This document shows, one piece after another, positions 603 to 45,994 of a stretch of DNA of 46,879 bases. Location of the stretch: the IMG/VR virus record IMGVR_UViG_3300015370_000022, positions 1-46,879 of that record. The stretch is one strand, 5' to 3'. Within the stretch, counting starts at the first letter, position 1, and each line of letters begins with the position of its first letter. A program made the position numbers and the translations under genes. This stretch comes from a virus. Its lineage: Duplodnaviria > Caudoviricetes. The notes beneath the pieces were generated by a model. It saw only the letters and a program-made list of their open reading frames with translations, was not told the origin of the DNA and did no database searches.

Positions 603-797
603 TTGAACAAGCAAGACCAGATAGGGTTTAATGTATGTGTTGATGCGACAAGGCACATGGAGAAGCACATGGCTGAAGAGGCTTACGAGAATTGTGCTCG
701 TCATGGGAAATGTTATGAGCTTTGTTTTAAGAAACATCAATGTGTAATTCCCATAGTTATCACGTATTACTGGACTAAATTGGCGATGAGGAATTGA
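603..797 (+). CDS. hypothetical Cys/His-rich protein
   Basis: Fills the gap between coupled genes; stop overlaps the methylase start. Confidence 0.5.
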   Translation: MNKQDQIGFNVCVDATRHMEKHMAEEAYENCARHGKCYELCFKKHQCVIPIVITYYWTKLAMRN

Positions 798-1237
798 TGA
801 AACCATACTATCAAGATAATCACATCAGGATATTTTGTAAAGACTGCCGTTCAATGGAGGAGTTGGGGGACGAAAGCGTGCAGATGTGCGTTACTAGTCC
901 CCCTTACTGGGGACTTCGCAAGTATTCTGGTGAGCAGGAATTGATATGGGGTGGAGACTGTCCGCATGAATGGGGTAGTTTGATACCCAATCCTATGAGC
1001 AAATCAGGTAAGCACGGTCCCGCTAGTATCTTAACAAAGACGGCAGATGAGCAACATGCAGTTAGAAAGGAAAGCAATCAAGGTAGCTATTGTCAACTAT
1101 GTTCTGCGTGGCGTGGAAGTTATGGATTAGAGCCACAACCAGATTGCGGGAGACCATTTGTGAAACTCCGAAGTGATTTAACTGAGAAAGAATTGGATTA
1201 TGCGAAGGGGGAATTAGAGCGATGCGGGTTGCTTTAA
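794..1237 (+). CDS. DNA methyltransferase (N4-C/N6-A, beta class), N-terminal fragment
   Basis: KPYYQD start, DCR, catalytic TSPPYWGLR motif, then GLEP; stops before the rest of the domain. Confidence 0.9.
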   Translation: MMKPYYQDNHIRIFCKDCRSMEELGDESVQMCVTSPPYWGLRKYSGEQELIWGGDCPHEWGSLIPNPMSKSGKHGPASILTKTADEQHAVRKESNQGSYCQLCSAWRGSYGLEPQPDCGRPFVKLRSDLTEKELDYAKGELERCGLL

Positions 1238-1765
1238 CTTTGGGCGTGGGTGATTACGCTTTGTCTTATTGTGGCAAGGGAAACATAGAGTCTGCCCATT
1301 CGGAATATCATATCGTAGGTCAGGGCGTTCAGCGTAAGGGATTATATGATGAGCTTGAAGTAGAACATTGTGTCCGTTCCCGTTCCTATTGCCACAATCT
1401 TGGCAGGTATAATTATCCCTTTCAAGCACTCCATTCACGAAGGCTCGGTATTCAGGGCTTTGAAAATCCTTCTGCCTTGCGGTTGATAAACCTCCCTTCC
1501 AATTCGGATGTAACTCACCTTTGCCGTGAGCTAGATTTGCTTTGCCTGCTTCAACAAACTTGGCAATCACTTCGGGAGTTGGGCGTCTGCCTGTCGGTTT
1601 ACCTGTTAAGGATGCAGAAATCTTGGCTCGCTTCTCTGGGGAACAAGGGATACCAGTTGATGTTGGCTTCCCCTTTCGGCTGGCTGAAATCTTTGCCCTT
1701 ACTTCGGGTCGCCAAGCAGGATTATCAGTCTTATTTCTTAAAGCTAAATCAGGTCGTTTTCTCAT
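1214..1765 (-). CDS. HNH homing endonuclease with NUMOD3-like repeats, antisense insertion in the methylase
   Basis: Repeats EVRAKISASRKGK and EKRAKISASLTGK, HPNWKGG, RDNYTCQDC...AHHI...NGQTLCFPCH. Confidence 0.92.
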   Translation of the reverse strand: MRKRPDLALRNKTDNPAWRPEVRAKISASRKGKPTSTGIPCSPEKRAKISASLTGKPTGRRPTPEVIAKFVEAGKANLAHGKGELHPNWKGGLSTARQKDFQSPEYRAFVNGVLERDNYTCQDCGNRNGNGHNVLLQAHHIIPYAERPDLRYDIPNGQTLCFPCHNKTKRNHPRPKLKQPASL

Positions 1766-1806
1766 ACCTTATTATACCACAAACGGGGGTAGGTTGTAAA
1801 CCTTAA
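1222..1806 (+). CDS. shadow/bridge ORF antisense to the HNH, linking the two methylase halves
   Basis: 194 stop-free codons; ATG lies within the end of 794..1237 after GAAGGGGG; stop overlaps the next start (TAATG). No recognisable protein family. Confidence 0.4.
   Translation: MRVALTLGVGDYALSYCGKGNIESAHSEYHIVGQGVQRKGLYDELEVEHCVRSRSYCHNLGRYNYPFQALHSRRLGIQGFENPSALRLINLPSNSDVTHLCRELDLLCLLQQTWQSLRELGVCLSVYLLRMQKSWLASLGNKGYQLMLASPFGWLKSLPLLRVAKQDYQSYFLKLNQVVFSYLIIPQTGVGCKP
1771..1800 (-). promoter_or_regulatory. sigma70-type promoter for leaderless HNH mRNA
   Basis: TTTACA-18nt-TATAAT with TG extension; ATG 5 nt downstream of the -10 box. Confidence 0.7.
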
Positions 1807-3920
1807 TGAATATAAGACTAGAAAAATCACGAGTACCAGCACACCTAACGAAATACTTTGAGACGGATACTTGCTCGTCCTGTTATGTGTGCCATACCAT
1901 AGAGATATTAAGGGAGATACGCCGGGTTTTACGCAAGGATGGATGCGTTTTTTTGAACATCGGAGACTCTTATGTGTCTGGCAAGTCTAGGTATTCAAGC
2001 AAGCCTCACTCTATAGCAGGTGGCAAGGATAGGGGTGATAACCACAGCCAGAAGCCAGACCAATATTACCATAAGTATCTAAAGCCCAAAGACCTCTGCC
2101 TCATACCCTTTAGAGTAGCCATAGCAGCCCAAGAAGATGGTTGGTGGGTGAGGTCAGTAATTATATGGAGCAAGCCCAATCCTATGCCTGAGTCGGTTCA
2201 CGGCTCGCATTTTATCAGGCATTGTGTTACAATAGAAGAGTATGAGAAGTTGTCAGGTATGCGGTCAACTAAAGGTAGCAACAAAGACGGGTCCGCCGAC
2301 TTGCCCAGAATGTCGCCGAGCCAAGTATCTGATTGTGAAGAGGCGTTATCGGAACAGTCTCAAAGGACAAGAGACCGAGAAGGCTTACGAACAGAGACCC
2401 GAAGTCAAAGAGAACCGCCGTCAAGCCAGCCGTTCACGGCAAGCCAAACAGAGCAAGGGAAGGCACAAACCAACAAAAGAAGAACGGAAGCAACAGAAGA
2501 AAGAAGCCAATCAACGCTACTGCAAGACAGTGAAGGGCAAATACAGGAAGCAACGAGACTATGCGAGGCGGAAACAAGCAATAGTAGTAGACCAACCAGT
2601 AACAGCAGAGGACTGGCTAGAGATACTGAAAGCTCACAAGAACCGCTGTCATTATTGCCACAAGAGGAAAGTGCTAACGATAGACCATATAATACCAATC
2701 AGCAAGGGGGGCAAACATATCAAGATGAACATAGTGCCAGCCTGTCGGAGTTGCAACGCCAAGAAGAAGGACAATCTGGTGATGCTCTTATAGAGTGCCC
2801 CGGCTGTCCGAAATGCAAACGATATAATGGCTATATTCGCATAAAAGGTTCAGGCAGACCTACCGAGTCTCACGAATACATCCTTATGCTCACCAAATCA
2901 GATGACTACTTTTTTGACACGGATGCGGTGAGAAGGGAATATACCGAACCGTTAAATCGTTGGGGTGGTCCCACATTTAGGGATTCAAGCCATAAGTATA
3001 TTGAAATGGGCGGACACGATGGTGAGCAGAAATACGGGGCAACAAGTATGTTCCGCAAGGGGCGTCCAGTTAGACCAAATGAAGGTGGGGCTAATATCAG
3101 GTCAGTATGGGAGTTCCCCGAAGAGGTTATTGGTGAGGCTCAAGAAGTAGAACCTAAAGAGTTCCGTTATGAGGGACAAGCCACAAAGGATTATAAATCT
3201 GCTGGTGCTCAAGACCCATCCGAGACAAAGAGAAGGATATTGAGAGGGCTTAAAACAAAGGGACAGCAAGAAATAGGCAACCAAGAACAACATCACGGGC
3301 AGGATATATTCCCTCAAAGTGGTAGCCGTAATCTTAGGTCTGTTTGGCACTTTCCGACCCAACCCTTTCCGCAAGCCCATTTTGCAGTATTCCCTGAGAA
3401 GCTACCTGAGTTATGTATTAAGGCAGCCACGCCAGAAGTAGGGTGCTGTAGTAAGTGTGGGGCACCGTGGGAGAGGATAGTTGAGAAGATACCCCAGAAT
3501 GTTCGTAGCCATAAACTAGCAAAGGGTAAAGTCAAAGATGCCGTTGATGGGAATAATCCTGATATGGCGGTGGGCGGTGGCTTCTCAAGAACGGGAGTTC
3601 AGTTTGAGTGGCAGGTTAATACTTTGGGTTGGAAACCTCAATGTAAATGTGGTAAATATACTTGCGTTAATTGTCAAAGTGTGGTATTATATCCTTTTCC
3701 TGATAAAAAAACTTGCCCGAACTGTGGCTCGCTAGACTTTAATTTTGAGCCTGCTGATAAAGCCCCATCAATAGTCTTAGACCCCTTCGCTGGAGCAGGC
3801 ACAACTTTATGGGTAGCTAAGAAGTTAAATCGTAAAGCAATAGGATTTGAGATTTCAGAAGAGTATTGTAACCTTGCCATAGAGAGATGCTCACAACAAG
3901 CTATGGGATTAAGTTTATGA
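1806..3920 (+). CDS. DNA methyltransferase, C-terminal part, with large in-frame insertions
   Basis: REIRRVLRKDG, NIGDSY, KPKDL, WSKPNPMPES, RPTESHEY, RSVW, HFAVFPEKL, VLDPFAGAGTT, GFEISEEY. Confidence 0.92.
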   Translation: MNIRLEKSRVPAHLTKYFETDTCSSCYVCHTIEILREIRRVLRKDGCVFLNIGDSYVSGKSRYSSKPHSIAGGKDRGDNHSQKPDQYYHKYLKPKDLCLIPFRVAIAAQEDGWWVRSVIIWSKPNPMPESVHGSHFIRHCVTIEEYEKLSGMRSTKGSNKDGSADLPRMSPSQVSDCEEALSEQSQRTRDREGLRTETRSQREPPSSQPFTASQTEQGKAQTNKRRTEATEERSQSTLLQDSEGQIQEATRLCEAETSNSSRPTSNSRGLARDTESSQEPLSLLPQEESANDRPYNTNQQGGQTYQDEHSASLSELQRQEEGQSGDALIECPGCPKCKRYNGYIRIKGSGRPTESHEYILMLTKSDDYFFDTDAVRREYTEPLNRWGGPTFRDSSHKYIEMGGHDGEQKYGATSMFRKGRPVRPNEGGANIRSVWEFPEEVIGEAQEVEPKEFRYEGQATKDYKSAGAQDPSETKRRILRGLKTKGQQEIGNQEQHHGQDIFPQSGSRNLRSVWHFPTQPFPQAHFAVFPEKLPELCIKAATPEVGCCSKCGAPWERIVEKIPQNVRSHKLAKGKVKDAVDGNNPDMAVGGGFSRTGVQFEWQVNTLGWKPQCKCGKYTCVNCQSVVLYPFPDKKTCPNCGSLDFNFEPADKAPSIVLDPFAGAGTTLWVAKKLNRKAIGFEISEEYCNLAIERCSQQAMGLSL
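2225..2233 (+). promoter_or_regulatory. extended -10 promoter inside the methylase CDS, for the nested HNH
   Basis: TGtTACAAT 8 nt before the HNH ATG; the same tgtgttacaat string occurs in the promoter at 38365-38375. Confidence 0.55.
2242..2793 (+). CDS. HNH endonuclease nested in the +1 frame of the methylase
   Basis: CQVC/CPEC zinc motif, basic helix, HKNRCHYC...TIDHIIPISKGG...NIVPACRSCNAKK. Confidence 0.92.
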   Translation: MRSCQVCGQLKVATKTGPPTCPECRRAKYLIVKRRYRNSLKGQETEKAYEQRPEVKENRRQASRSRQAKQSKGRHKPTKEERKQQKKEANQRYCKTVKGKYRKQRDYARRKQAIVVDQPVTAEDWLEILKAHKNRCHYCHKRKVLTIDHIIPISKGGKHIKMNIVPACRSCNAKKKDNLVMLL

Positions 3921-3983
3921 AACCATTTTTAATTGCACTGGGTATAGGTGGTATGATATATTTAGTTAGGTCTGGGTGATTGA

Positions 3984-4217
3984 ATGAACGATGAAGCAAG
4001 TGATTTTCGGGAGAAGTGTCCCATACTGGTAATGCCAAATGCGGGGAAGGAGAGAGTGCTTGAGTGTATCAACTGTCCTGTAAGAACGTGCATTGATGAT
4101 ATTAGGTTGACGAATAAACCAATTCTCCCTACTTTCCTTAAAGAAGTTAATGCGACCATAGCTGAACTAGAGGATATTAAGGATTATATTAAAGAGAAGA
4201 TGAAACAGGAGGATTGA
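3984..4217 (+). CDS. hypothetical protein (CINCPVRTC)
   Basis: 77 aa ORF in a coupled run of genes. Confidence 0.6.
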   Translation: MNDEASDFREKCPILVMPNAGKERVLECINCPVRTCIDDIRLTNKPILPTFLKEVNATIAELEDIKDYIKEKMKQED

Positions 4218-28189: not shown

Positions 28190-28440
28190 GCCTACATTAT
28201 AGCATATGATAGAAATTAGAACTGATGTCTTACTGTAGGATGAATAACTAGGGGTGTTGCTTGGGGGTAGTGATAGTTTAGTATTAAGATGGTCTGAGGC
28301 ACAGCCCGTTTCAACTACTTATGAGCTAGGTTTTCTTATTATGGTATGTCGGTTACCACGAGAGCATTGACAACACAAGTTCATAGCACCGGTCCATATT
28401 GCTATAGTATTCTTAAAGACTCTTGAAAGGGGCTACCTTT

Positions 28441-28469
28441 ATTTTATCATACATCTGGCTCTTTGTCAA
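28441..28469 (-). promoter_or_regulatory. leftward sigma70 promoter
   Basis: TTGACA-17nt-TAAAAT with TG extension. Confidence 0.7.
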
Positions 28470-28538
28470 GTAGAACATTTGTGCTAACTTCATAAAGATT
28501 TCATAAAGAAGTCAAAAATAGTATCCGATAAAGCATTA

Positions 28539-28567
28539 TTGCTTTTGTATATGTGTTATGGTATAAT
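28539..28567 (+). promoter_or_regulatory. rightward (early) sigma70 promoter
   Basis: TTGCTT-17nt-TATAAT with TG extension, followed by AAGGAGG RBS. Confidence 0.75.
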
Positions 28568-28584
28568 TAAGCAAGGAGGACAAT

Positions 28585-28989
28585 ATGATAACTAAAACTG
28601 ATTTAGCCTATATTGCTGGATTGTTAGATGGCGAAGGCACAATCTCTATTTCCAATCAATTTTATATGGCAGTTAGAATACGAAATACTGATAAAGAAGC
28701 AATGCATTGGCTTAAGGGTATATTTCCGCTGGCTCGCCTCTATACAATTATGCCCCGGCAACCAACCCACAAAACAAGTTATTCCCTTGAATTATCAGGC
28801 GACAATGCTTCTGACCTACTTAAACACTTATTACCCTTTTTGAGAATTAAAAAACGTCAAGCTCTTCTGGCAATCCATTTTATCAATGAACGCCATTTAA
28901 GAGCACCCAGACCTGGTCATAAATTACATCATTCAGTTATTGCCAAGCGGAAGCAATACTACATAGAGATGAAACAGTTAAATTCTTAA
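28585..28989 (+). CDS. free-standing single-motif LAGLIDADG endonuclease
   Basis: LAYIAGLLDGEGTI ... LLPFLRIKKRQA. Confidence 0.9.
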   Translation: MITKTDLAYIAGLLDGEGTISISNQFYMAVRIRNTDKEAMHWLKGIFPLARLYTIMPRQPTHKTSYSLELSGDNASDLLKHLLPFLRIKKRQALLAIHFINERHLRAPRPGHKLHHSVIAKRKQYYIEMKQLNS

Positions 28990-29187
28990 CACGTAAGCGT
29001 GTAGTTCAAATTAGGTAGTATCGTTGAGCAATTCGTTAAAAATAGTAACCTGATACAGTTTGAGAGACTTGCTAGGCATCACGCTTTGGTGTGAGTTCCT
29101 GTAACTTGCTGTCAGTCAAGTTGGTAGCTATTGCGTGACAGGGGTAGCCGGTATATGATGGTGGTATCAAAGGAAAGGAGCAAGGGA

Positions 29188-29358
29188 ATGAGGAAGGAAT
29201 GCCCGGAGTGCGGAAGGATGGTGTACCAGTTATTTGTAAAGCAAGCACCGGCCAATATATTAACAATGGCAGATAGAGTCGCTTGTGGCTATTGCCTAAA
29301 TAACCTTTGGGCAATCAATGAAGAAAAGGAACAAGCAGGTAAGGAGGTAAGGAAATGA
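29188..29358 (+). CDS. small zinc-ribbon protein
   Basis: AGGAG RBS; CPEC...CGYC. Confidence 0.6.
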   Translation: MRKECPECGRMVYQLFVKQAPANILTMADRVACGYCLNNLWAINEEKEQAGKEVRK

Positions 29359-29507
29359 CAACTTGGCATAAGGAAATACCCAAAGCAATAGATGGTATTT
29401 GCGTAGATTGCAAAAAGTTTTATGAGTGCTTTATCCGAGAAGCTGCAGAGAATGAACGCAATAGTCATGTAGTAGAATGCGGGCAATTTGAGGAAAGCCG
29501 AAACTAG
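29355..29507 (+). CDS. small Cys-rich protein; its 3' end overlaps the hammerhead
   Basis: AAGGAGG RBS, ATGA overlap, CVDC...C...C, 50 aa. Confidence 0.6.
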   Translation: MTTWHKEIPKAIDGICVDCKKFYECFIREAAENERNSHVVECGQFEESRN

Positions 29508-29565
29508 CTCTTAACCGGGCTAGTCTGACCGAGTTGACATCTCGGCACTGACGAAGGCAAGTCAG
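29497..29565 (+). ncRNA. type II hammerhead ribozyme
   Basis: GCC-GAAA-[stem III ACTAGCTC/GGGCTAGT]-C(29525)-[stem I TG-CCGAG/CTCGG-CA]-CTGACGA-A-GGC; loop TGAC can pair with downstream GTCA. Confidence 0.85.
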
Positions 29566-29592
29566 ACAATCAAAGGAAAGGGGGCAAGGACG

Positions 29593-29970
29593 ATGATAAC
29601 AGAGCTACAAAAAAGGTTGGGCGTAACAAGCGAGTTTATCGATAAGGATAACCACAAGTATTGGATGACTGATAGATGTCAGTTGATAGACCCGGATATA
29701 GCTGGCTCTCCAATGCCAGAGTTATTGGCTAATCTCATCCATAAGTCAATATCGCCAAGCGAGATGATATATCTCATTCAGATAGGGCTTGGTGTGTATG
29801 ATGAGCACGGCAACCGCTTACCAATGAGAGTTGGATTGCCAACCGATGTCCCTAGACCTAAAACATATAAGCTCTTCCGAGATGCGCTGACTTGGCTAGA
29901 AAGCAACTATTTAGGTGGCTGGTTTTATGCAGTTGATAAAATCTGGAAGGAAGCTAAAACCGAGTACTAG
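29593..29970 (+). CDS. hypothetical early protein
   Basis: 125 aa with purine-rich RBS. Confidence 0.75.
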   Translation: MITELQKRLGVTSEFIDKDNHKYWMTDRCQLIDPDIAGSPMPELLANLIHKSISPSEMIYLIQIGLGVYDEHGNRLPMRVGLPTDVPRPKTYKLFRDALTWLESNYLGGWFYAVDKIWKEAKTEY

Positions 29971-30018
29971 TCCCTCTATACAGTGGGGAAGTGCAAGTCC
30001 CCACTAATAGGGAGATTA
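29968..30018 (+). other. long imperfect RNA hairpin
   Basis: TAGTCCCTCTAT/ATAGGGAGATTA outer stem, AGTGGGGA/TCCCCACT inner stem. Confidence 0.65.
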
Positions 30019-30031
30019 GCACCTTAACAAC

Positions 30032-30348
30032 TGAATAGAATCTTACCCGCCTCGCCTTGCTAAATAAAATAAACAGGAGTAGCAACGATGAAACTGTATA
30101 GCTGGATTGGGAATGAACGAGGCACAGGGAAAACGCAAGGTGGAAACAAAGTCATAGAGTTTGGCTTAGACTATGAGGAGAACGGACAGGATTGGAAATG
30201 TAATACCTCTGAACACGAACTCCACCTCAAGTACATGCTAGACGAAAATGGCAAACCAGTAATCTATATCTGGGGCAATAAAAACTATCAGGTCATAGAT
30301 AGAAGGTAACATTGCACTGGCAAGGCGGGGGAGGTAAGATTCTATTCA
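30032..30348 (+). repeat. inverted repeat (31 bp stem) enclosing gene 30088-30309
   Basis: 30032-30062 pairs with 30318-30348: 16 bp perfect, 2x2 loop, then 13 bp with G-U. Confidence 0.9.
30088..30309 (+). CDS. hypothetical early protein (stem-enclosed)
   Basis: AGGAG RBS, 73 aa. Confidence 0.75.
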   Translation: MKLYSWIGNERGTGKTQGGNKVIEFGLDYEENGQDWKCNTSEHELHLKYMLDENGKPVIYIWGNKNYQVIDRR

Positions 30349-30568
30349 CAGCACCTTAACAACTGATAGATTAGGGGGTAGCACTTCCCAAGAGTCTCAA
30401 CACAGTTGAATTTTGTGAGGGTATGAAAAATGACCCCACTACTGGACGACACCGAGTGAAGGGCAATCTACCCCCTGTCTAGCACCTTAACAATAGAATA
30501 GACTGAACACCCGGACACTAGCTGGACCTAAGACACTTACAAGCTGGTTAAGGGTTAGTAGGCAAAAA

Positions 30569-30866
30569 GTCCTTACTCCGTAGGAGTGCTTGAGCACTAC
30601 TAAAATATGGAGGGATAAAGTGATAAGCTGGGAAGAACTAAAGCCAACGCTTGATGAAGTCCTAGAGGATTGTGAACAGTGTGTCGCTTGTTGCACGCCA
30701 CTAACACGGGAGACCGCTTGGGTATTAGATAACATACATGATAAGCGACATTATTGCTACCAACACGCACCAGAGGATGCTATCCGGGTAAAAGACTTAA
30801 TGAGACCACTAAAAGCTCTGGCATAATACTACACGGGAGGTTTGAGCCTCCCTACGGAGTAAGGAC
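30569..30866 (+). repeat. inverted repeat enclosing gene 30620-30826
   Basis: GTCCTTACTCCGTAGG (30569-30584) / CCTACGGAGTAAGGAC (30851-30866) perfect, extendable by GCTTGAGC/GTTTGAGC with G-U. Confidence 0.9.
30620..30826 (+). CDS. small Cys/His protein (stem-enclosed)
   Basis: GGAGG RBS before GTG at 30620; CVAC...YCYQH. Confidence 0.65.
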   Translation: MISWEELKPTLDEVLEDCEQCVACCTPLTRETAWVLDNIHDKRHYCYQHAPEDAIRVKDLMRPLKALA

Positions 30867-30869
30867 AAC

Positions 30870-31460
30870 GCTGATACCTCGTTGACTGGGCGGGTAGGAA
30901 AGGAAGTAACTATGCGACTAATCAACAAAACGAAGCATAGCACCATAGGGCTTAGGGTTATGCTCTATGCCCTGGCTGCTCAAGCCAATATCTCAACAAG
31001 AGGTGTAACAGTAGAAGTCAGGCGGGGTTCTCGAAACTTGCACGGAGTTTGTTACCAGTATGAGAAGCGGATTATTCTCTGGTTACTCAACTCTAGCAAG
31101 ACGCAAGATATATCATTCATCTGGTTGCATGAACTAGCACACCTGACCCCCCGCAATATGAAGCTAGGTGCTAGCGGACACAGCATTAAAGCACAAAGAC
31201 AGGCAGATGCAGTCGCCGAGAAGATACTTGGGATAACACATAAAGACCTAAAATGGCATGAGAAGTCTTGGAGAACTAGGCAGCATCCCAAATATCCCAC
31301 AAAGAAACTAGCATTGGCAAATCATCCCGACCCTGAGGACAAATACCCGGCTTGGCGTTTTAGACTTATTAAAACCAGACATGAGGGTAAAAAGTGGTGG
31401 GTCTGGCAAGAGAAGTTGAAGTAAAATCTAATTTACCCGCTCAGTCACAGGGGTATCAGC
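30870..31460 (+). repeat. inverted repeat (29 bp stem) enclosing gene 30912-31424
   Basis: 30870-30898 pairs with 31432-31460 with G-U pairs and one 2x2 loop. Confidence 0.88.
30912..31424 (+). CDS. HExxH zinc metallopeptidase-like protein (stem-enclosed)
   Basis: HGVC...WLHELAH motif of the SprT/ImmA-like zincin type. Confidence 0.65.
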   Translation: MRLINKTKHSTIGLRVMLYALAAQANISTRGVTVEVRRGSRNLHGVCYQYEKRIILWLLNSSKTQDISFIWLHELAHLTPRNMKLGASGHSIKAQRQADAVAEKILGITHKDLKWHEKSWRTRQHPKYPTKKLALANHPDPEDKYPAWRFRLIKTRHEGKKWWVWQEKLK

Positions 31461-31718
31461 TAACTCAGTGAGCTGCCTTGCTAAATAAAATTAGTGAGGT
31501 GAAAGTATGGTAATGGGAATGAATGTGAGAACCTATATTTATGTCAGGCCCGAAGATGGCAAATGTGTCCATCAACAAGCGTGTGGGGCAATTATGGGTG
31601 AGGAATACGAACACGATGAACTTGACTGGCAACCACCAGATGATTGGCCGTATGAGGTCAAGGATTTACGCAAAGAGTAATTAGCACTAGCAAGGCGGTT
31701 CACTAAGTAGGCTGATAC
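31453..31718 (+). repeat. inverted repeat (31 bp stem) enclosing gene 31507-31680
   Basis: 31453-31483 pairs with 31688-31718 with two mismatches and three G-U pairs. Confidence 0.88.
31507..31680 (+). CDS. small acidic protein (stem-enclosed)
   Basis: GAGGTG RBS; 57 aa MVMGMNVRTY...KDLRKE, missed by the ORF track. Confidence 0.65.
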   Translation: MVMGMNVRTYIYVRPEDGKCVHQQACGAIMGEEYEHDELDWQPPDDWPYEVKDLRKE

Positions 31719-31749
31719 AATTACCCACTAATATAAAGGAGGTAAGGAA

Positions 31750-31896
31750 ATGAAGTGTGTGATTTGTTTGACCAAGGAGACGGGAGATAAAGTAGTATGC
31801 AAGGATTGTTTTGAAAAGGATAAAGAGGAAGCTATACAAGCAATGATGGATGTCATACTCTACGAGAGACCCTATCAGAGGGAGGCAAGGCAATGA
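31750..31896 (+). CDS. small zinc-finger protein
   Basis: AAGGAGG RBS; CVIC...CKDC. Confidence 0.6.
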   Translation: MKCVICLTKETGDKVVCKDCFEKDKEEAIQAMMDVILYERPYQREARQ

Positions 31897-32075
31897 AAAC
31901 TAGAGACGAAGCATTTCAGGAATACCAAGAGACAATGGATAAAATAGACGAGGACAATAACAGGAAACGAGCAGAGGCAAAGCTCATACTCAACGAACAT
32001 TTGGCAACTATCAGGGCTTCACTCCACAAGGAATTGAAAGCTGTCCGTGATTTACAACAATCAAAAGGAAGGTGA
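31893..32075 (+). CDS. small coiled-coil protein
   Basis: GGAGG RBS, ATGA overlap. Confidence 0.65.
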   Translation: MKTRDEAFQEYQETMDKIDEDNNRKRAEAKLILNEHLATIRASLHKELKAVRDLQQSKGR

Positions 32076-32079
32076 AAAT

Positions 32080-32250
32080 ATGCCTGATGAAAGAATGATG
32101 GAATGCCCTTACTGTAGCCTGATATTCTGGATTACAGAAGAGGAGCAATATGACAACGAAACCTTTGAGTGTCATCATTGTAGAGAGGCTAACGCCGGAT
32201 GCACAGACGCCGACGACTATGGCGTGCTAATTGGAGAAAGAGAGGTTTAA
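32080..32250 (+). CDS. small zinc-ribbon protein
   Basis: AGGAAGG RBS; CPYC...CHHC. Confidence 0.65.
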   Translation: MPDERMMECPYCSLIFWITEEEQYDNETFECHHCREANAGCTDADDYGVLIGEREV

Positions 32251-32278
32251 CTGCTTAATAAAATAAAGGAGGAGTGAA

Positions 32279-32506
32279 ATGGGTTTCTGGTCTAAAGAAA
32301 CTAAAGCAAAAGTTAGAGTAACGGCAAAACTACGACGGATTGGAGTTTTAACAAAGCTAGCAGATGACGACCTCAAGGATACCTGTGATGTTCGTGCTGA
32401 GTGGCTACAAGAAGCATTAGCAGCAGCAAAGGAGAAAGGCATTAAATTTACTATAAGTTCTGAAGGTGATGTGTTCTTTGCAGAGCTTGATACGATGAAG
32501 CTATGA
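32279..32506 (+). CDS. hypothetical protein
   Basis: AAGGAGGAG RBS; 75 aa. Confidence 0.7.
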   Translation: MGFWSKETKAKVRVTAKLRRIGVLTKLADDDLKDTCDVRAEWLQEALAAAKEKGIKFTISSEGDVFFAELDTMKL

Positions 32507-32853
32507 GGGGCTAAGCCCCTCTAGGGGGATACTACACTAATAAGAGGAGGTAAGGAGAGAATGGTAAGAACAATAACATATAGTTGCGATAATCCTGAAT
32601 GCCGGCTAATATCAACAAACCCTGATAAATGCCCCTTCTGTGGATGCAAAGAATTGAGCGTTTATGAGGACTATGAGGAGGAGTAATGCCATCAACACAA
32701 ACACTATTGAAAGCCTATGGGAATATACCCATTCCTGACCGAATTGATGAAATGTCTTATCAAGAAGCATTTGACCGAGAACTTGACAGGTATTCCATAA
32801 GGCAAGCCTTAATGCGTCTTTATGAAAGGGATGTTGAAACAATTAAAGAAGAT

Positions 32854-33268
32854 AGAGGGAGTTAGCCTCCCCATAGGGAGAGAAAATCAGGAGGTTATAT
32901 GCTAAGACTAATAACAGATAAAAAGAGGAAAGAGGAAAACCACAAGTTCTATGATGAGGGATTAAACAGGGGATATGCGTTAGGGCGTATGATGGACCGA
33001 GCAGAAGCCACTAACCGGGGATTTATTATAGGAAGCAAAGTAAATAAAGAGCTTGAGGATATTCTCAAGCAGGAGAAATTTTAAGGAGGTAAGGAGTAAT
33101 GGAAGTAATTAAGTGGGCGAGTGGTAAGGGTCTGAAACTAATCCTATCACGAAAAGAGGCAGAGGATTTACAAGAAGTGGTACGCCTTGCACTGGGGTCA
33201 TATGTCAGGGAAGCCGAAAGTGATTTCTTTGAAATAGAAATAGAGAGGGAGTTAGCCTCCCCATAGGG
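32854..33268 (+). repeat. 25 bp direct repeat AGAGGGAGTTAGCCTCCCCATAGGG (32854-32878, 33244-33268)
   Basis: Exact match; contains a GGGAG/CTCCC hairpin; brackets two small genes. Confidence 0.9.
32899..33084 (+). CDS. hypothetical protein
   Basis: AGGAGG RBS; YDEGLNRGYALG motif. Confidence 0.65.
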   Translation: MLRLITDKKRKEENHKFYDEGLNRGYALGRMMDRAEATNRGFIIGSKVNKELEDILKQEKF

Positions 33269-33285
33269 GGGAGTGAAAGGAGCCA

Positions 33286-33546
33286 ATGAAACGGCAATTA
33301 TACCAATGTCAACAAGCTAAGGCAATATACGACTATAAGATTGAGGAATGCCGAATTACTTGCGTTGCAGGACACCGATTATTTAGCGGTAGTATGGACG
33401 GCACAGTAAATATCAGGTGTCTGAGAAGAGGCGAACCACTAGAATATCAGGCGTGCCAAACCTGTGAGAGCTATGATTGCAACGGAGCACCTATCCCAAA
33501 ATCAGAGCGTGGCTGGTATAACTTGGAGAAAACTGAAGCAAAGTAA
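33286..33546 (+). CDS. Cys-rich hypothetical protein
   Basis: AAGGAG RBS; 86 aa. Confidence 0.7.
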   Translation: MKRQLYQCQQAKAIYDYKIEECRITCVAGHRLFSGSMDGTVNIRCLRRGEPLEYQACQTCESYDCNGAPIPKSERGWYNLEKTEAK

Positions 33547-34229: not shown

Positions 34230-34412
34230 ATGGGGAAATATGATAATATGCGTAAGCACTCTCGTAACAAAATGATTGCAGAGTATCGGTATTCCCATCC
34301 CGAACTTAGCTTGCAAGAACTAGCAAGCCTGTTTAACATTTCCAAGCAAAGAGTCTGGGCGATACTAAAAGCGCATCAAGGGAAATCAGTTAATGGAGGC
34401 AACAAAACATAA
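34230..34412 (+). CDS. helix-turn-helix DNA-binding protein, leaderless
   Basis: LSLQELASLFNISKQRVWAIL; TGGTATAAT 6 nt upstream of the ATG. Confidence 0.8.
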   Translation: MGKYDNMRKHSRNKMIAEYRYSHPELSLQELASLFNISKQRVWAILKAHQGKSVNGGNKT

Positions 34413-34809
34413 ATTAGGCGTACCTTTTAAGGATAGATTGGGTTATATACAAGTATCAATAGACCGAAATCACCCATACGCAGGAATGGTAAATTGGAGA
34501 GAGCGTTCAAATCAAGTTGCAGTAGCCGAGCACCGCCTTATAATGGCAAAACATTTAGGCAGATGTCTTGAGTGCTGGGAAGTAGTCCACCATAAGAATG
34601 GAATCAAAGACGATAATAGAGTAGAAAATTTAGAGGTTGAGAGAAAAGGTGAACATACAAGGATGCACAATAAAGGATACCAAGATGGATTTAATACTGG
34701 ATATAGAGAAGGTTTATTCAAAGCAAGTGTTATCTTAGTATTAATATCTAGCGTGCTTTTAACGTCCCAAAACACAGTTCCTGTGCAGAAATCAGGAGCT
34801 AGAAAGTAA
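34393..34809 (+). CDS. HNH endonuclease
   Basis: EHRLIMAKHLGR...VVHHKNGIKDDNRVENL. Confidence 0.9.
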   Translation: MEATKHKLGVPFKDRLGYIQVSIDRNHPYAGMVNWRERSNQVAVAEHRLIMAKHLGRCLECWEVVHHKNGIKDDNRVENLEVERKGEHTRMHNKGYQDGFNTGYREGLFKASVILVLISSVLLTSQNTVPVQKSGARK

Positions 34810-35467: not shown

Positions 35468-35667
35468 AGAAAATGTCCACTAATCTTAGCACCATAGAAT
35501 ACTGTAAGGAATGTGGAAAGGATGTGGAGGCGTGGAAGTCATTTCACAGGAAGAGGGATGGTGGTTTTGAGGTAGAGCTTTCCTGTAATGTGTGTGGTCA
35601 TACTATAGAATTTTGGGACTATGACGAGAGGGGTAATAGGATAGAGGTGCAGGAGGTGAAGAAATGA
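35464..35667 (+). CDS. zinc-ribbon protein
   Basis: GGAGG RBS; CKEC...CNVC. Confidence 0.65.
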   Translation: MKKMSTNLSTIEYCKECGKDVEAWKSFHRKRDGGFEVELSCNVCGHTIEFWDYDERGNRIEVQEVKK

Positions 35668-36350
35668 AAGAACCGAAGACACAAAAAGAATTTGATAAAT
35701 TGGCAGAAGGTAAAGATTGGATATATGTTAGTAAGGGATATTGGGAGGCAAGCGGGTCGGCTCATGTTGAGGCACGGGGGTCGGCTCATATTGAGGCAAG
35801 GGGGTCGGCTCATATTGTGGCACGGGAGTCGGCTCATGTTGTGGCACGGGAGTCGGTTTATATTGTGGCACGGGGGTCGGCTCATGTTGTGGCATGGGGG
35901 TCGTCTACCTGTGCTAAACACTCAAGTTTAGTAAATGCCCATGGGAATGTAATTGATTTTACAATCTATCCCAAAACTGTGGACGGATGGCTCAATAAAT
36001 ATGAATGTCCAATAAGGCGAGGTAAAGTCATTCTTTATAAAGCAACCGATGAGAACTATCGGACTAGAAATGGTTTTCAATATACCATTGGTGAAATGGC
36101 TATCGCCCCAGACTGGGAAGACATAGATATTGAATGTGGTAAGGGACTGCATCTATGTCATCATCCCGTCTGTTGCAAGGAATTTATTACTGCTAGACAC
36201 TACTTAGCTTGTGAGGTCAAAGTTATAGATTTGCGGATTTATTCTAGCAAGCCTGAGTTCCCCGATAAACTAAGAGCAAAATCATGTAGAGTGCTTTATG
36301 AAGTGGATAGATGGGGTAATAAAATTGAGGTTCAGGAGGTTAAGCTATGA
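35664..36350 (+). CDS. phage protein with 8-aa beta-helix-like repeats and a CGKGLH domain
   Basis: Six SAHVEARG-type repeats followed by YKA...ECGKGLH...KLRA. Confidence 0.8.
   Translation: MKEPKTQKEFDKLAEGKDWIYVSKGYWEASGSAHVEARGSAHIEARGSAHIVARESAHVVARESVYIVARGSAHVVAWGSSTCAKHSSLVNAHGNVIDFTIYPKTVDGWLNKYECPIRRGKVILYKATDENYRTRNGFQYTIGEMAIAPDWEDIDIECGKGLHLCHHPVCCKEFITARHYLACEVKVIDLRIYSSKPEFPDKLRAKSCRVLYEVDRWGNKIEVQEVKL
35757..35900 (+). repeat. 24 nt coding tandem repeat, 6 copies
   Basis: TCGGCTCATGTTGAGGCACGGGGG-like units starting every 24 nt. Confidence 0.9.
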
Positions 36351-38346: not shown

Positions 38347-38375
38347 TTGATAATCACTTCTTATTGTGTTACAAT
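38347..38375 (+). promoter_or_regulatory. sigma70 promoter for the HNH gene
   Basis: TTGATA-17nt-TACAAT with TG extension. Confidence 0.7.
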
Positions 38376-38397
38376 GGTAGGAGGAGGTAATGGGAAA

Positions 38398-38823
38398 ATG
38401 TCAGGTAAAGGAATGAAAGGAAAGAAAAATCCAAGCTGGAAAGGTGGTCGCAGGATGTTACCGACTGGATATATCAGTATATGGATTTCGCCCGATAATC
38501 CTTTTTATCCAATGGCTCAAAAGGGCAATTATGTGAGAGAACACAGATTAGTAATGGCTAAACATTTGGGGCGTTGTTTATTGCCTGAGGAAATAATCCA
38601 TCATAAAAATGGTAACAGAAGTGATAACCGCCTTGAGAATTTGGAACTTGTAGTTTCAGCAAACGAACATAAAATAGCCTTCATTGAAAACATTAAAAAA
38701 CAAGAGCAGAATAGATTGCTAATTTTCTTAAAGGGATTGCTGGAACTTAACCCGAAAGCTAGTTTAGAGGCTACCATTGACTTAATAGAAACTACTGACC
38801 CTGAAAATTATGGGGGTGATTAG
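38398..38823 (+). CDS. HNH endonuclease
   Basis: [35 protein letters not shown]; start placed after the GGAGGAGG RBS. Confidence 0.9.
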
Positions 38824-44004: not shown

Positions 44005-44241
44005 ATGGGTCAACGGGAACTCACTAAAAGAATTTCCGATAGGCTACATAAGCAGGTAGCTTTTGGAGGGTTGACAAGAAGAAAAACAACTGAAGGGGAG
44101 GTCATACTAAAATGTCCAGTTTACAATGGGCAAGGGGATTTAGAACCATTGGCATCAGACCTTTCCAACATCTTTATAAGTTATATTGAAGAGGAGGGAC
44201 TTAAACAAATTAAAGCTATAATTAAGGACATACTTAAATGA
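44005..44241 (+). CDS. hypothetical protein
   Basis: GGAGG RBS before ATG at 44005. Confidence 0.65.
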   Translation: MGQRELTKRISDRLHKQVAFGGLTRRKTTEGEVILKCPVYNGQGDLEPLASDLSNIFISYIEEEGLKQIKAIIKDILK

Positions 44242-44534
44242 GGAAAACACCATTAAGAAAGGTTAGTAGCAAGCAGGCAATTCTGGATAAAGAGTGGCGT
44301 GAGACGACCCTTTTGAAGTGGGCTGAACAGGGTCGCAAGTGCTCTTGGTGTTCTCGCCATATTACATATCCTGTCGGGCATCACATTAAGAGGCGAAGTA
44401 GGGGAAGGAATGATAGTTTAGAAAATTGTTATGTATGCCATTATGTTTGCCATTCCGAAATCCACGACAATAATGTAGATGTATCTTTTTATAAAACTAG
44501 GCAAGAATGGCTTGATAGGAATAAAACTACTTGA
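44238..44534 (+). CDS. small HNH nuclease (NinG-like)
   Basis: MRKTPLRKVS, CSWC, HHIKRRSRG...N...CHYVCH. Confidence 0.8.
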   Translation: MRKTPLRKVSSKQAILDKEWRETTLLKWAEQGRKCSWCSRHITYPVGHHIKRRSRGRNDSLENCYVCHYVCHSEIHDNNVDVSFYKTRQEWLDRNKTT

Positions 44535-45075: not shown

Positions 45076-45339
45076 ATGAATGACAAACCTTCGTTCGGGG
45101 ATATGCCGAGTGCGGGGATTTGGAAAGACCATCCTCAACATGAACGGGAGAGGACAGAGATGTGGCGTCCCGGTAATTGGGAAAATCCACACGATACACC
45201 AATGGCAAGTTTGGCTAGTATCTATGAAGCTGGAGCAGATGCTATCTTGACCTGCCTAATAAAAGATGGTATACTTGATATAAATAAGCTAAAGGAGCAA
45301 GGGTATGGCAGTCAGAATACACAGGGACAAATTGAATGA
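45076..45339 (+). CDS. hypothetical protein (WRPxxWxNP...YEAGADA)
   Basis: GGAGG RBS; 87 aa. Confidence 0.65.
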   Translation: MNDKPSFGDMPSAGIWKDHPQHERERTEMWRPGNWENPHDTPMASLASIYEAGADAILTCLIKDGILDINKLKEQGYGSQNTQGQIE

Positions 45340-45994
45340 GCTTTACTGGGACAAAGGATTATCCACAATCCAAATAGCGAATATGTATGAAACATCTCAC
45401 TCTACAATTCGTAATAGAATGATTGAACTTAGTATCCCACGCAGATTAAATACTAACCATATAAAAGGGAAACATCATAGCGAGGAAGCGAAGCGTAAAA
45501 TGTCCGAAACTCAACTCGGAGAAAAATCTAATAATTGGAAGGGAGGACGGAGTATAGATGCCCACGGCTATATTAGAATTTTAATTGATGCTGACAGTCC
45601 ATATTATCCCATGGCTCACAAAGCCAAGAATAGGAGAAGAACTAGAGACATAACAGAACATCGGCTTATAATGGCACAGTATTTGGGAAGGTGCTTATAT
45701 CCGTGGGAAGTGGTTCATCATATCAATGGTAATAAAACTGATAATCGCATTGAGAATTTGCGATTGATGTCGTCTGTAACTGAGCATATGCCCTCCATGA
45801 ATCACGAAAGATTTTTAGAGCAATTGAAACGAGAATCTTATGAGCAGGGCGAACGTGATATGCACGAAGCAGATGTGGAGTGGTTAGAGGAGCATAGAGT
45901 TGCTGGCTTTTCTTTGGTTGAAGGTATCGGTAAGTGCGTAGTTATACCTTATACAGACTGGCAAGAGTTTACAGGAGAGAAGGATGCCAGATGA
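45305..45994 (+). CDS. HNH endonuclease with HTH and NUMOD3 domains and a C-terminal extension
   Basis: LYWDKGLSTIQIA HTH, HSEEAKRKMS, NWKGG, EHRLIMA, VHHINGNKTDNRIENL. Confidence 0.9.
   Translation: MAVRIHRDKLNELYWDKGLSTIQIANMYETSHSTIRNRMIELSIPRRLNTNHIKGKHHSEEAKRKMSETQLGEKSNNWKGGRSIDAHGYIRILIDADSPYYPMAHKAKNRRRTRDITEHRLIMAQYLGRCLYPWEVVHHINGNKTDNRIENLRLMSSVTEHMPSMNHERFLEQLKRESYEQGERDMHEADVEWLEEHRVAGFSLVEGIGKCVVIPYTDWQEFTGEKDAR

Follow-up and report, generated by a model that had tools for sequence, protein, structure and literature searches.

We found that a phage genome carries an array of four small genes, each enclosed by its own long-range stem, and that this array is headed by a boxA motif identical to that of Chloroflexota ribosomal RNA (rrn) leaders. 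The stretch of DNA analysed, hereafter the window, is an entire virus record of 46,879 nt that carries terminase, capsid, helicase and methylase genes. The array belongs to a series of small + strand genes beginning opposite the terminase genes, and it is from this position that we call these genes early, as they presumably are. The array is real and conserved. Since a boxA of the Chloroflexota rrn type is combined with one stem per gene, and since this layout recurs, the messages are likely folded and cut by the machinery with which the host makes ribosomes. In the reading that we prefer, with a probability of about 0.65, a complex of the rRNA type would form on boxA, the arms would pair and RNase III would cut them, leaving end-clamped, exonuclease-resistant single-gene mRNAs; we infer all of the enzymatic steps.

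The first-pass annotation of this DNA had described four genes, each inside a distinct inverted repeat. All four repeats were recovered at the positions listed in Table 1, and they are less distinct than claimed, as stems 1 and 4 share an inner part of ~10 bp and their flanks. Among the long-range stems of the window, the four rank 1 to 4, with scores of 24, 23.5, 21 and 19, the next one scoring 14.5. When the window was shuffled with dinucleotides preserved (n = 12), the best score of each shuffle lay between 14.5 and 19.5, so three stems exceed 12 of 12 shuffles and stem 2 exceeds 11 of 12. The predicted fold of 29960-31760 contains all five stems, with inner pairs at a modelled probability near 1. 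The helices measure 29-31 bp in stems 1, 3 and 4 and 16 bp in stem 2, their internal loops are 1x1 and 2x2 only, and the arms lie 204-537 nt apart, flanking the gene. Each of the four stems holds one ORF with a Shine-Dalgarno-like site upstream, just past the 5' arm, and the stop codon stands 7-24 nt from the 3' arm. The fifth stem had been reported to enclose no clear gene, and indeed its loop is structured and non-coding; variants of it occur in runs X1, X2 and X5. The units had also been said to abut within a few nucleotides. This is the case for stems 2 and 3, which are separated by 3 nt, and for stems 3 and 4, which overlap by 8 nt (31453-31460), but not for stems 1 and 5 (18 nt) or stems 5 and 2 (87 nt). 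Because of their overlap, the outer ends of stems 3 and 4 compete, with predicted pairing of about 0.8 vs 0.15. A scan of the window with Rfam gave no match at the gathering score, and the loops contain ORFs, not rRNA. When the motif of the inner part of stems 1 and 4 was searched, four of the five matches were due to chance. A ribozyme in the spacer 30500-30565 was considered and rejected, with no Rfam match and a fold z of 0.05.

Table 1. Features of the array and of the region upstream, in window positions.
Feature	Positions	Strand	Evidence or remark
Type II hammerhead ribozyme-like RNA	29496..29566	+	Rfam RF02276; predicted cut after C29525
125-aa ORF outside any stem, downstream of the hammerhead and upstream of the first boxA	29593..29970	+	no Pfam/PHROG match
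Local hairpin immediately 5' of boxA copy 1, boxB-like position	29967..30019	+	fold z=-3.79 (29962-30035)
boxA copy 1, 20-nt motif; 12-nt core 30019-30030	30019..30038	+	identical to Chloroflexota 16S/23S leader motif
Stem 1, 5' arm: 16 bp, 2x2 loop, 13 bp	30032..30062	+	homologous arms in L256, L269, L312, L308
Gene 1, 73 aa	30088..30309	+	ORF inside stem 1
Stem 1, 3' arm	30318..30348	+	inverted repeat, fold
boxA copy 2, 12-nt core	30351..30362	+	exact core match
Stem 5, short, 5+9 bp around ~90 nt structured non-coding sequence	30367..30481	+	fold z=-3.52; no Rfam match
boxA copy 3, 12-nt core	30482..30493	+	exact core match
Stem 2, 5' arm, 16 bp perfect	30569..30584	+	inverted repeat scan
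Gene 2, 68 aa from GTG (78 aa from TTG 30590), Cys/His-rich	30620..30826	+	ORF inside stem 2
Stem 2, 3' arm	30851..30866	+	inverted repeat scan
Stem 3, 5' arm: 11 bp, 2x2 loop, 16 bp	30870..30898	+	commonest stem family among relatives
Gene 3, 170 aa, HExxH motif (HELAH)	30912..31424	+	ORF inside stem 3
Stem 3, 3' arm; final 8 nt common to stem 4 5' arm	31432..31460	+	inverted repeat, fold
Stem 4, 5' arm; inner part common to stem 1	31453..31483	+	homologous arms in L003, L312
Gene 4, 57 aa	31507..31680	+	ORF inside stem 4
Stem 4, 3' arm	31688..31718	+	inverted repeat scan

A direct repeat stands before stems 1, 5 and 2. Its 12-nt core is present in three exact copies, which fall within 463 nt and all on the coding strand; everywhere else in the window it meets at least 2 mismatches. 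Neither stem 3 nor stem 4 is preceded by a separate boxA, and stem 2 begins 87 nt after its boxA. GTDB genomes were scanned with the 20-nt motif, and at least 120 stretches matched. Among the matches listed, 76 of the 80 titled genome matches were from Chloroflexota, strict primer tests placed 53 of 121 before a 16S gene and 14 before a 23S gene, and by wider tests 54 of 74 distinct genome matches ran into rRNA. In 30 distinct host 16S leaders, the motif makes up the 5' arm of a ~28-bp stalk that closes ~1,700 nt away, after the 16S gene. Positions 8 and 9 of this stalk are each unpaired in 15 of the 30 leaders, and a 2x2 loop is often found there. From its position and its likeness to the E. 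coli consensus, we take the 20-nt motif to be boxA. In E. coli, according to PMC4807359, PMC8632103 and PMC10250234, boxA precedes both 16S and 23S and binds NusB/E, and the proposal there is that it keeps the 5' arm attached to the polymerase, which allows the helix to form and RNase III to cut it. The analogy with boxA-led rRNA operons, drawn in the first-pass annotation, is thus borne out at the level of sequence by the identity between the motif before stem 1 and the Chloroflexota rrn leader motif. The phage boxA is very probably used by Nus factors.

The same layout was found in other contigs. For this, a stem was counted when it scored at least 16 and started within 110 nt of a motif outside rRNA operons, and 46 loci offering less than 400 nt of room were left out. 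A stem followed the motif at 31 of 77 distinct non-rRNA loci vs 7 of 462 control positions, counts that are not independent, since the loci are relatives of one another and the motif served as the query for finding them. By source, these were 11 of 20 viral, 19 of 44 metagenome and 1 of 13 genome loci. No stem reached the threshold at the other 46 of 77 loci, including 12 of the 13 in cellular genomes, so boxA often stands alone. In a genome (L129), an IS-like element has one boxA-like terminal repeat. Stem 2 had no homolog among the fetched loci. Several viral stems are near letter-for-letter copies of the host stalk (for example L214, L216, L218 and L226), some including its loop, and derived stems retain the shape, not the outer sequence, of that stalk. 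In the boxA-adjacent stems spanning at least 200 nt (n = 48), the medians are 28 bp for the arm, 16 nt for the arm-to-start distance and 9 nt for the stop-to-arm distance, and in 37 of them a single ORF takes up 80% or more of the loop, as against 136 of 2400 random intervals. In L256, L269, L308 and L312, the genes inside arms of the stem 1 type encode 54 to 162 aa, and arms of the stem 4 type surround other genes in L003 and L312. The order in L312 is promoter, boxA, stem, boxA, stem, boxA, stem, and L269 has three boxA-stem units; many contigs contain just one. Several metagenome contigs have other genes in common with the window.

These counts bear on the idea that copies of boxA and stalk flood the cell as decoys, diverting Nus factors and RNase III from the synthesis of host rRNA while the genes ride along. 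Three boxA copies in 463 nt would serve such a purpose, as would short stems that enclose no gene, of which stem 5 of the window and those of L047, L236, L252, L261, L310 and L346 are examples. A decoy would hardly need, however, a loop into which one ORF, complete with ribosome-binding site, fits exactly, as seen in 37 of the 48 stems, or stand as a single unit in so many contigs, and we regard this explanation as very unlikely.

The 50 cargo proteins fell into 33 clusters of unrelated families. None of the stem-enclosed proteins scored above the curated cut-off of Pfam except that of L319, and the PHROG matches were only to families of unknown function. L319, an IS200-like transposase in a 32-bp repeat, was taken out of the wobble and cargo-cluster counts and kept among the 48 stems. 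Gene 4 of the window matched phrog_10154 (E=0.008), also a family of unknown function. For gene 3, a match to DUF6782 (E=0.026) and row 2 of the Atlas, SprT-like on 36% of members with a score of 0.89, give a weak lead towards a metallopeptidase-like protein, as far as sequence likeness can suggest it.

The stems almost certainly act at the RNA level. At 42 of 95 loci, where stems were picked by a score blind to the type of wobble, G-U exceeded A-C on the coding strand by 52:20 (p=2e-4 under independence, which does not hold). This agrees with the RNA-level rather than dsDNA-level function put forward in the first-pass annotation. Its statement that most mismatches are G-U proved wrong, as with strand-neutral trimming these make up only half, 6 of 12, of the non-Watson-Crick positions in the window. 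An earlier G-U count of 98:28 was set aside because its stems came from a G-U-friendly score. A second line of evidence came from L292, where a homolog of gene 3 is 84% identical. Over the 27 positions of stem 3 compared, 11 are the same, 10 changed on both sides (8 of them paired in both sequences) and 6 changed on one side, 5 of which still pair while one breaks. The arms are identical at 12/27 and 16/27 positions, vs 385/513 for gene 3. Compensatory change was found for stems 1, 3 and 4. A column tally for stem family B (25/28), inflated by register shifts, was discarded, and the L292 pair count replaces it. Stem covariation and different cargo in relatives, for which a search had been proposed, were therefore both seen, the former in the eight both-side changes that stay paired in L292.

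The repeats might instead belong to mobile or invertible cassettes that work on DNA, as recombination or transposon ends. Such an origin could explain why the same arms surround different genes and why the stem 3/4 junction has an 8-nt sequence in common, and the boxA-like terminal repeat on the IS-like element of L129 would fit it. It does not explain the G-U bias of the coding strand or a motif identical to an RNA processing signal, and the cargo genes, as searched, are all in sense orientation. No integrase, recombinase or transposase was found among the scanned ORFs of the window (75 with Pfam, 48 with PHROGs), most of which have no annotation. The DNA inversions that the first-pass annotation had proposed to look for left no trace either, with no strand-changing joint in the contig rows (best 15 of 17; contigs drop rare variants). 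We consider DNA cassettes highly improbable.

The array region appears to be soundly assembled. Positions 28400-33400 are tiled with zero differences by contigs of X1, the probable source run, and one of these contigs spans 30056-31504, which is not independent support; in the small-share runs X2, X4 and X5, contigs mostly carry conserved arms of relatives. The phage host is likely to be found among Chloroflexota bacteria. This assignment, which we infer, leans on a single named terminase relative (P0109, Dehalococcoidia) and on terminase matches in 4 of 401 Dehalococcoidia genomes, one of them strong, at 32% identity. As a query for related loci, the terminase returned one locus, and gene 3 returned no relative among viral contigs. 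Neither boxA nor a stem was seen in the 13 kb of the closest terminase relative, L006 (63%), a sequence cut off inside the early region, nor in 40 kb of a provirus-like, distant relative found in G324. A promoter search upstream of the array gave nothing prominent (17 sites vs 12.5 expected), and a promoter picked by eye at 29131-29159 was rejected, its -35 box matching at only 3/6.

Upstream of the first boxA, we observed a hammerhead-like RNA and a hairpin that are absent from the first-pass annotation. A hairpin similar to the latter is present in L006. The window copy resembles type II hammerheads (RF02276) in its putative core and three stems; it differs from them in scoring 30.9 bits, below the gathering score of 37 (E=0.0028), and in having one extra A after the CUGACGA core. 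An extra core A is reportedly tolerated in a viroid hammerhead. The RNA overlaps the stop codon of ORF 29355-29507 and has a fold z of -2.98. Its predicted lowest-energy fold locks the core in an alternative hairpin, so the hammerhead may be slow or inactive. When 17 loci were scanned, 5 of them preselected by a pattern flag, four more hammerhead matches were obtained at 29.3-38.4 bits, one above gathering (38.4), and those of L070 and L301 begin 55 nt before boxA. Judged from these matches, the hammerhead is a recurrent yet optional part of boxA units.

According to the processing model that we favour, NusB/E on boxA would keep the 5' arm close to RNA polymerase until the 3' arm has been transcribed, and the same complex would shield the RNA from Rho. 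RNase III would cut every stem close to the loop, and the leftover clamp of ~15 bp would block RNase J at the 5' end as well as 3' exonucleases, giving fast and long-lived expression of small early proteins. The hammerhead may add a further cut upstream, free of protein, and the shared flanks could double as recombination handles for swapping cargo genes. In five incomplete Dehalococcoidia genomes, NusB, Rho and RNase J were each found in 5/5, RNase III and RtcB each in 4/5, and inositol-monophosphatase genes of the SuhB family in 3/5. Mini-III, which had been mentioned as a processing enzyme, is unlikely, as PF00636 matched once in each of 4/5 of these genomes and every match was a full-length RNase III. 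For the 16S stalk of E. coli, PMC4807359 and PMC8632103 describe Nus-driven looping and cutting by RNase III. Several observations weigh against the model: the motif loci that have no stem, the missing boxA before stems 3 and 4, the shortness of stem 2, the terminase relatives in which no such unit was seen, and the loss of the outer stalk sequence in derived stems, given that the reactivity of RNase III depends on the proximal-box sequence (PMC3074117). Cutting of the phage stems by RNase III is nevertheless probable.

The stems could also stay uncut, with boxA acting in antitermination and the paired arms either insulating the folding of the gene or joining stop and start for ribosome re-use. 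Start and stop codons lie at short, conserved distances from the arms, the outer arm sequence diverges freely and stem 2 is short, all of which would suit an uncut clamp, as would some loop motifs that, according to PMC3074117, permit RNase III binding but block cutting. Many units nevertheless keep the host stalk sequence itself, and the median arm, at 28 bp like that of the host stalk, exceeds what a clamp needs; we hold this alternative to be unlikely. In another variant, suggested in the first-pass annotation, the adjacent ends would be ligated after cutting, as for archaeal pre-rRNA, to give circularised single-gene mRNAs. The stem does hold the ends together, and RtcB is encoded in 4/5 host-class genomes. 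Hammerhead cleavage yields ends of the RtcB type, and RtcB is not known to join 5'-phosphate/3'-OH ends. It is the latter that RNase III leaves, according to PMC3074117, and no bulge-helix-bulge motif was found in the stems; the only hammerhead lies outside them, and no RNA ligase was found by Pfam among 75 or by PHROGs among 48 window ORFs. Circular mRNAs are on these grounds very improbable. An extension of this idea, a portable 'pre-rRNA cassette' from which any enclosed gene would be transcribed by a polymerase complex of the rRNA type and excised as a covalently circular mRNA, with hammerhead cuts feeding a host ligase and gene-less mini-stems releasing small RNAs, is a long shot.

Should host processing be confirmed as the role of these stems, boxA and the leader-trailer helix, treated until now as a ribosome-making device, would be reused here gene by gene for phage mRNAs, on a scale of some forty contigs and 33 cargo families. 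This indicates a means of host takeover for which the phage need not supply a protein. The stems would also provide natural substrates of 250-600 nt for the question, left open in PMC4807359, of whether the Nus complex serves mainly in RNA looping or in antitermination. The enclosed small proteins are likely the first-expressed effectors, boxA units may serve as a host-prediction signal for uncultured phages, and their build offers a compact blueprint for making bacterial mRNAs stable.

Early RNase III sites in T7/T3 and in the Bacillus phages SP82/SPO1 are local hairpins between genes. The likeness is in the expected outcome, stabilised single-gene mRNAs that host RNase III would release from a polycistronic early transcript; here, in contrast, the arms flank the gene and boxA accompanies them. 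With lambdoid nut sites, as described in PMC4807359 and PMC8632103, the array shares a phage boxA that would recruit host NusB/E in an early transcript. Nut sites have a boxB hairpin after boxA and act with the phage N protein. The array differs from them in the order of hairpin then boxA, which is the rrn order, in its host rrn motif and in the long stems around genes, and no protein of the N family, whose members are small and divergent, was matched among the scanned window ORFs (75 with Pfam, 48 with PHROGs). Archaeal circular pre-rRNA, made through a bulge-helix-bulge motif, EndA and RtcB, is alike in its long enclosing stem and adjacent ends; here there is no such motif, the host is bacterial and no sign of ligation was seen. 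A search of mostly open-access literature found no description of boxA-led stems around phage genes, and such gene-enclosing stems are apparently undescribed in print. The present case contributes a family from Chloroflexota that comprises many units, together with tandem arrays, exchange of cargo, a covariation test between orthologs and the hammerhead. The closest parallel is with rrn leaders and spacers, which have the identical 20-nt motif and a long-range stem of ~28 bp with a small loop often 8-13 bp from its outer end. The phage set has both rrn arrangements, boxA inside the 5' arm as for 16S or before a separate stem as for 23S, and in L312 and L269 boxA precedes each unit. The phage units differ from the rrn operon in enclosing protein genes of 170-550 nt, on phage DNA, in tandem, with exchangeable cargo and a hammerhead nearby. 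Because they enclose protein genes, they are not members of the rrn processing units, though they would work like them.

We looked at stems that enclose no gene. Such stems, spanning 108-141 nt, were observed at L047, L227, L236, L252, L261, L310 and L346 (other contigs or genome loci, as are all L-numbers here) and at 30367-30481 in the window. They hold a structured sequence of 50-90 nt, and the majority of them lie directly 3' of boxA, the motif shared with Chloroflexota rRNA leaders. The gene-less stems are candidate small RNAs, which would be released in the same way as the stem-enclosed genes. When four of these loci were searched against Rfam, 0 matches were obtained.

A further family of stems, with a span of 840-980 nt, was found 3' of boxA at L115, L259 and L332, and also at L097, L126, L145, L296, L323 and L329. 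Several copies are carried on contigs of Dehalococcoidia genomes, and the family perhaps represents integrated elements. In L003, a DUF5049-like stem-enclosed gene (3796-3984, minus strand) has an apparent ATA start.

Weaker alternative pairings were also seen in the window: 29503-29518, in stem III of the hammerhead, can pair with 30544-30559 in the spacer before stem 2, and 29986-30001, in the boxB-like hairpin, with 30374-30389 inside the gene-less stem. Short repeats and genes outside the array are listed in the table; an intron or intein may interrupt the methyltransferase region.

Short repeats and genes outside the array
Feature	Window position	Remark
24-nt tandem repeat (8-residue unit)	35723-35914	within DUF7666 gene 35664-36350
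30-nt direct repeat, short hairpin	32849-32878 and 33239-33268	two gene ends
DNA methyltransferase similarity	794-3920	across ORF 794-1237 and a 704-aa ORF matched in three stretches
Endonuclease genes, four HNH and one LAGLIDADG-like	28585-28989, 34393-34809, 38347-38823, 44238-44534, 45305-45994	in a 47-kb genome

An element of ~1,265 bp was found at L098, L129, L155, L173 and L194, recurring at contig ends of a single genome. Its 17-bp terminal inverted repeats match the boxA motif, and it is possibly an insertion sequence with rRNA-stalk-like ends. Finally, L031, L054, L073, L105, L220, L224, L228 and L300 each carry a sequence, judged tRNA-like by eye, on the strand opposite to boxA; the motif is directed at its 3' end, an arrangement resembling integration sites.
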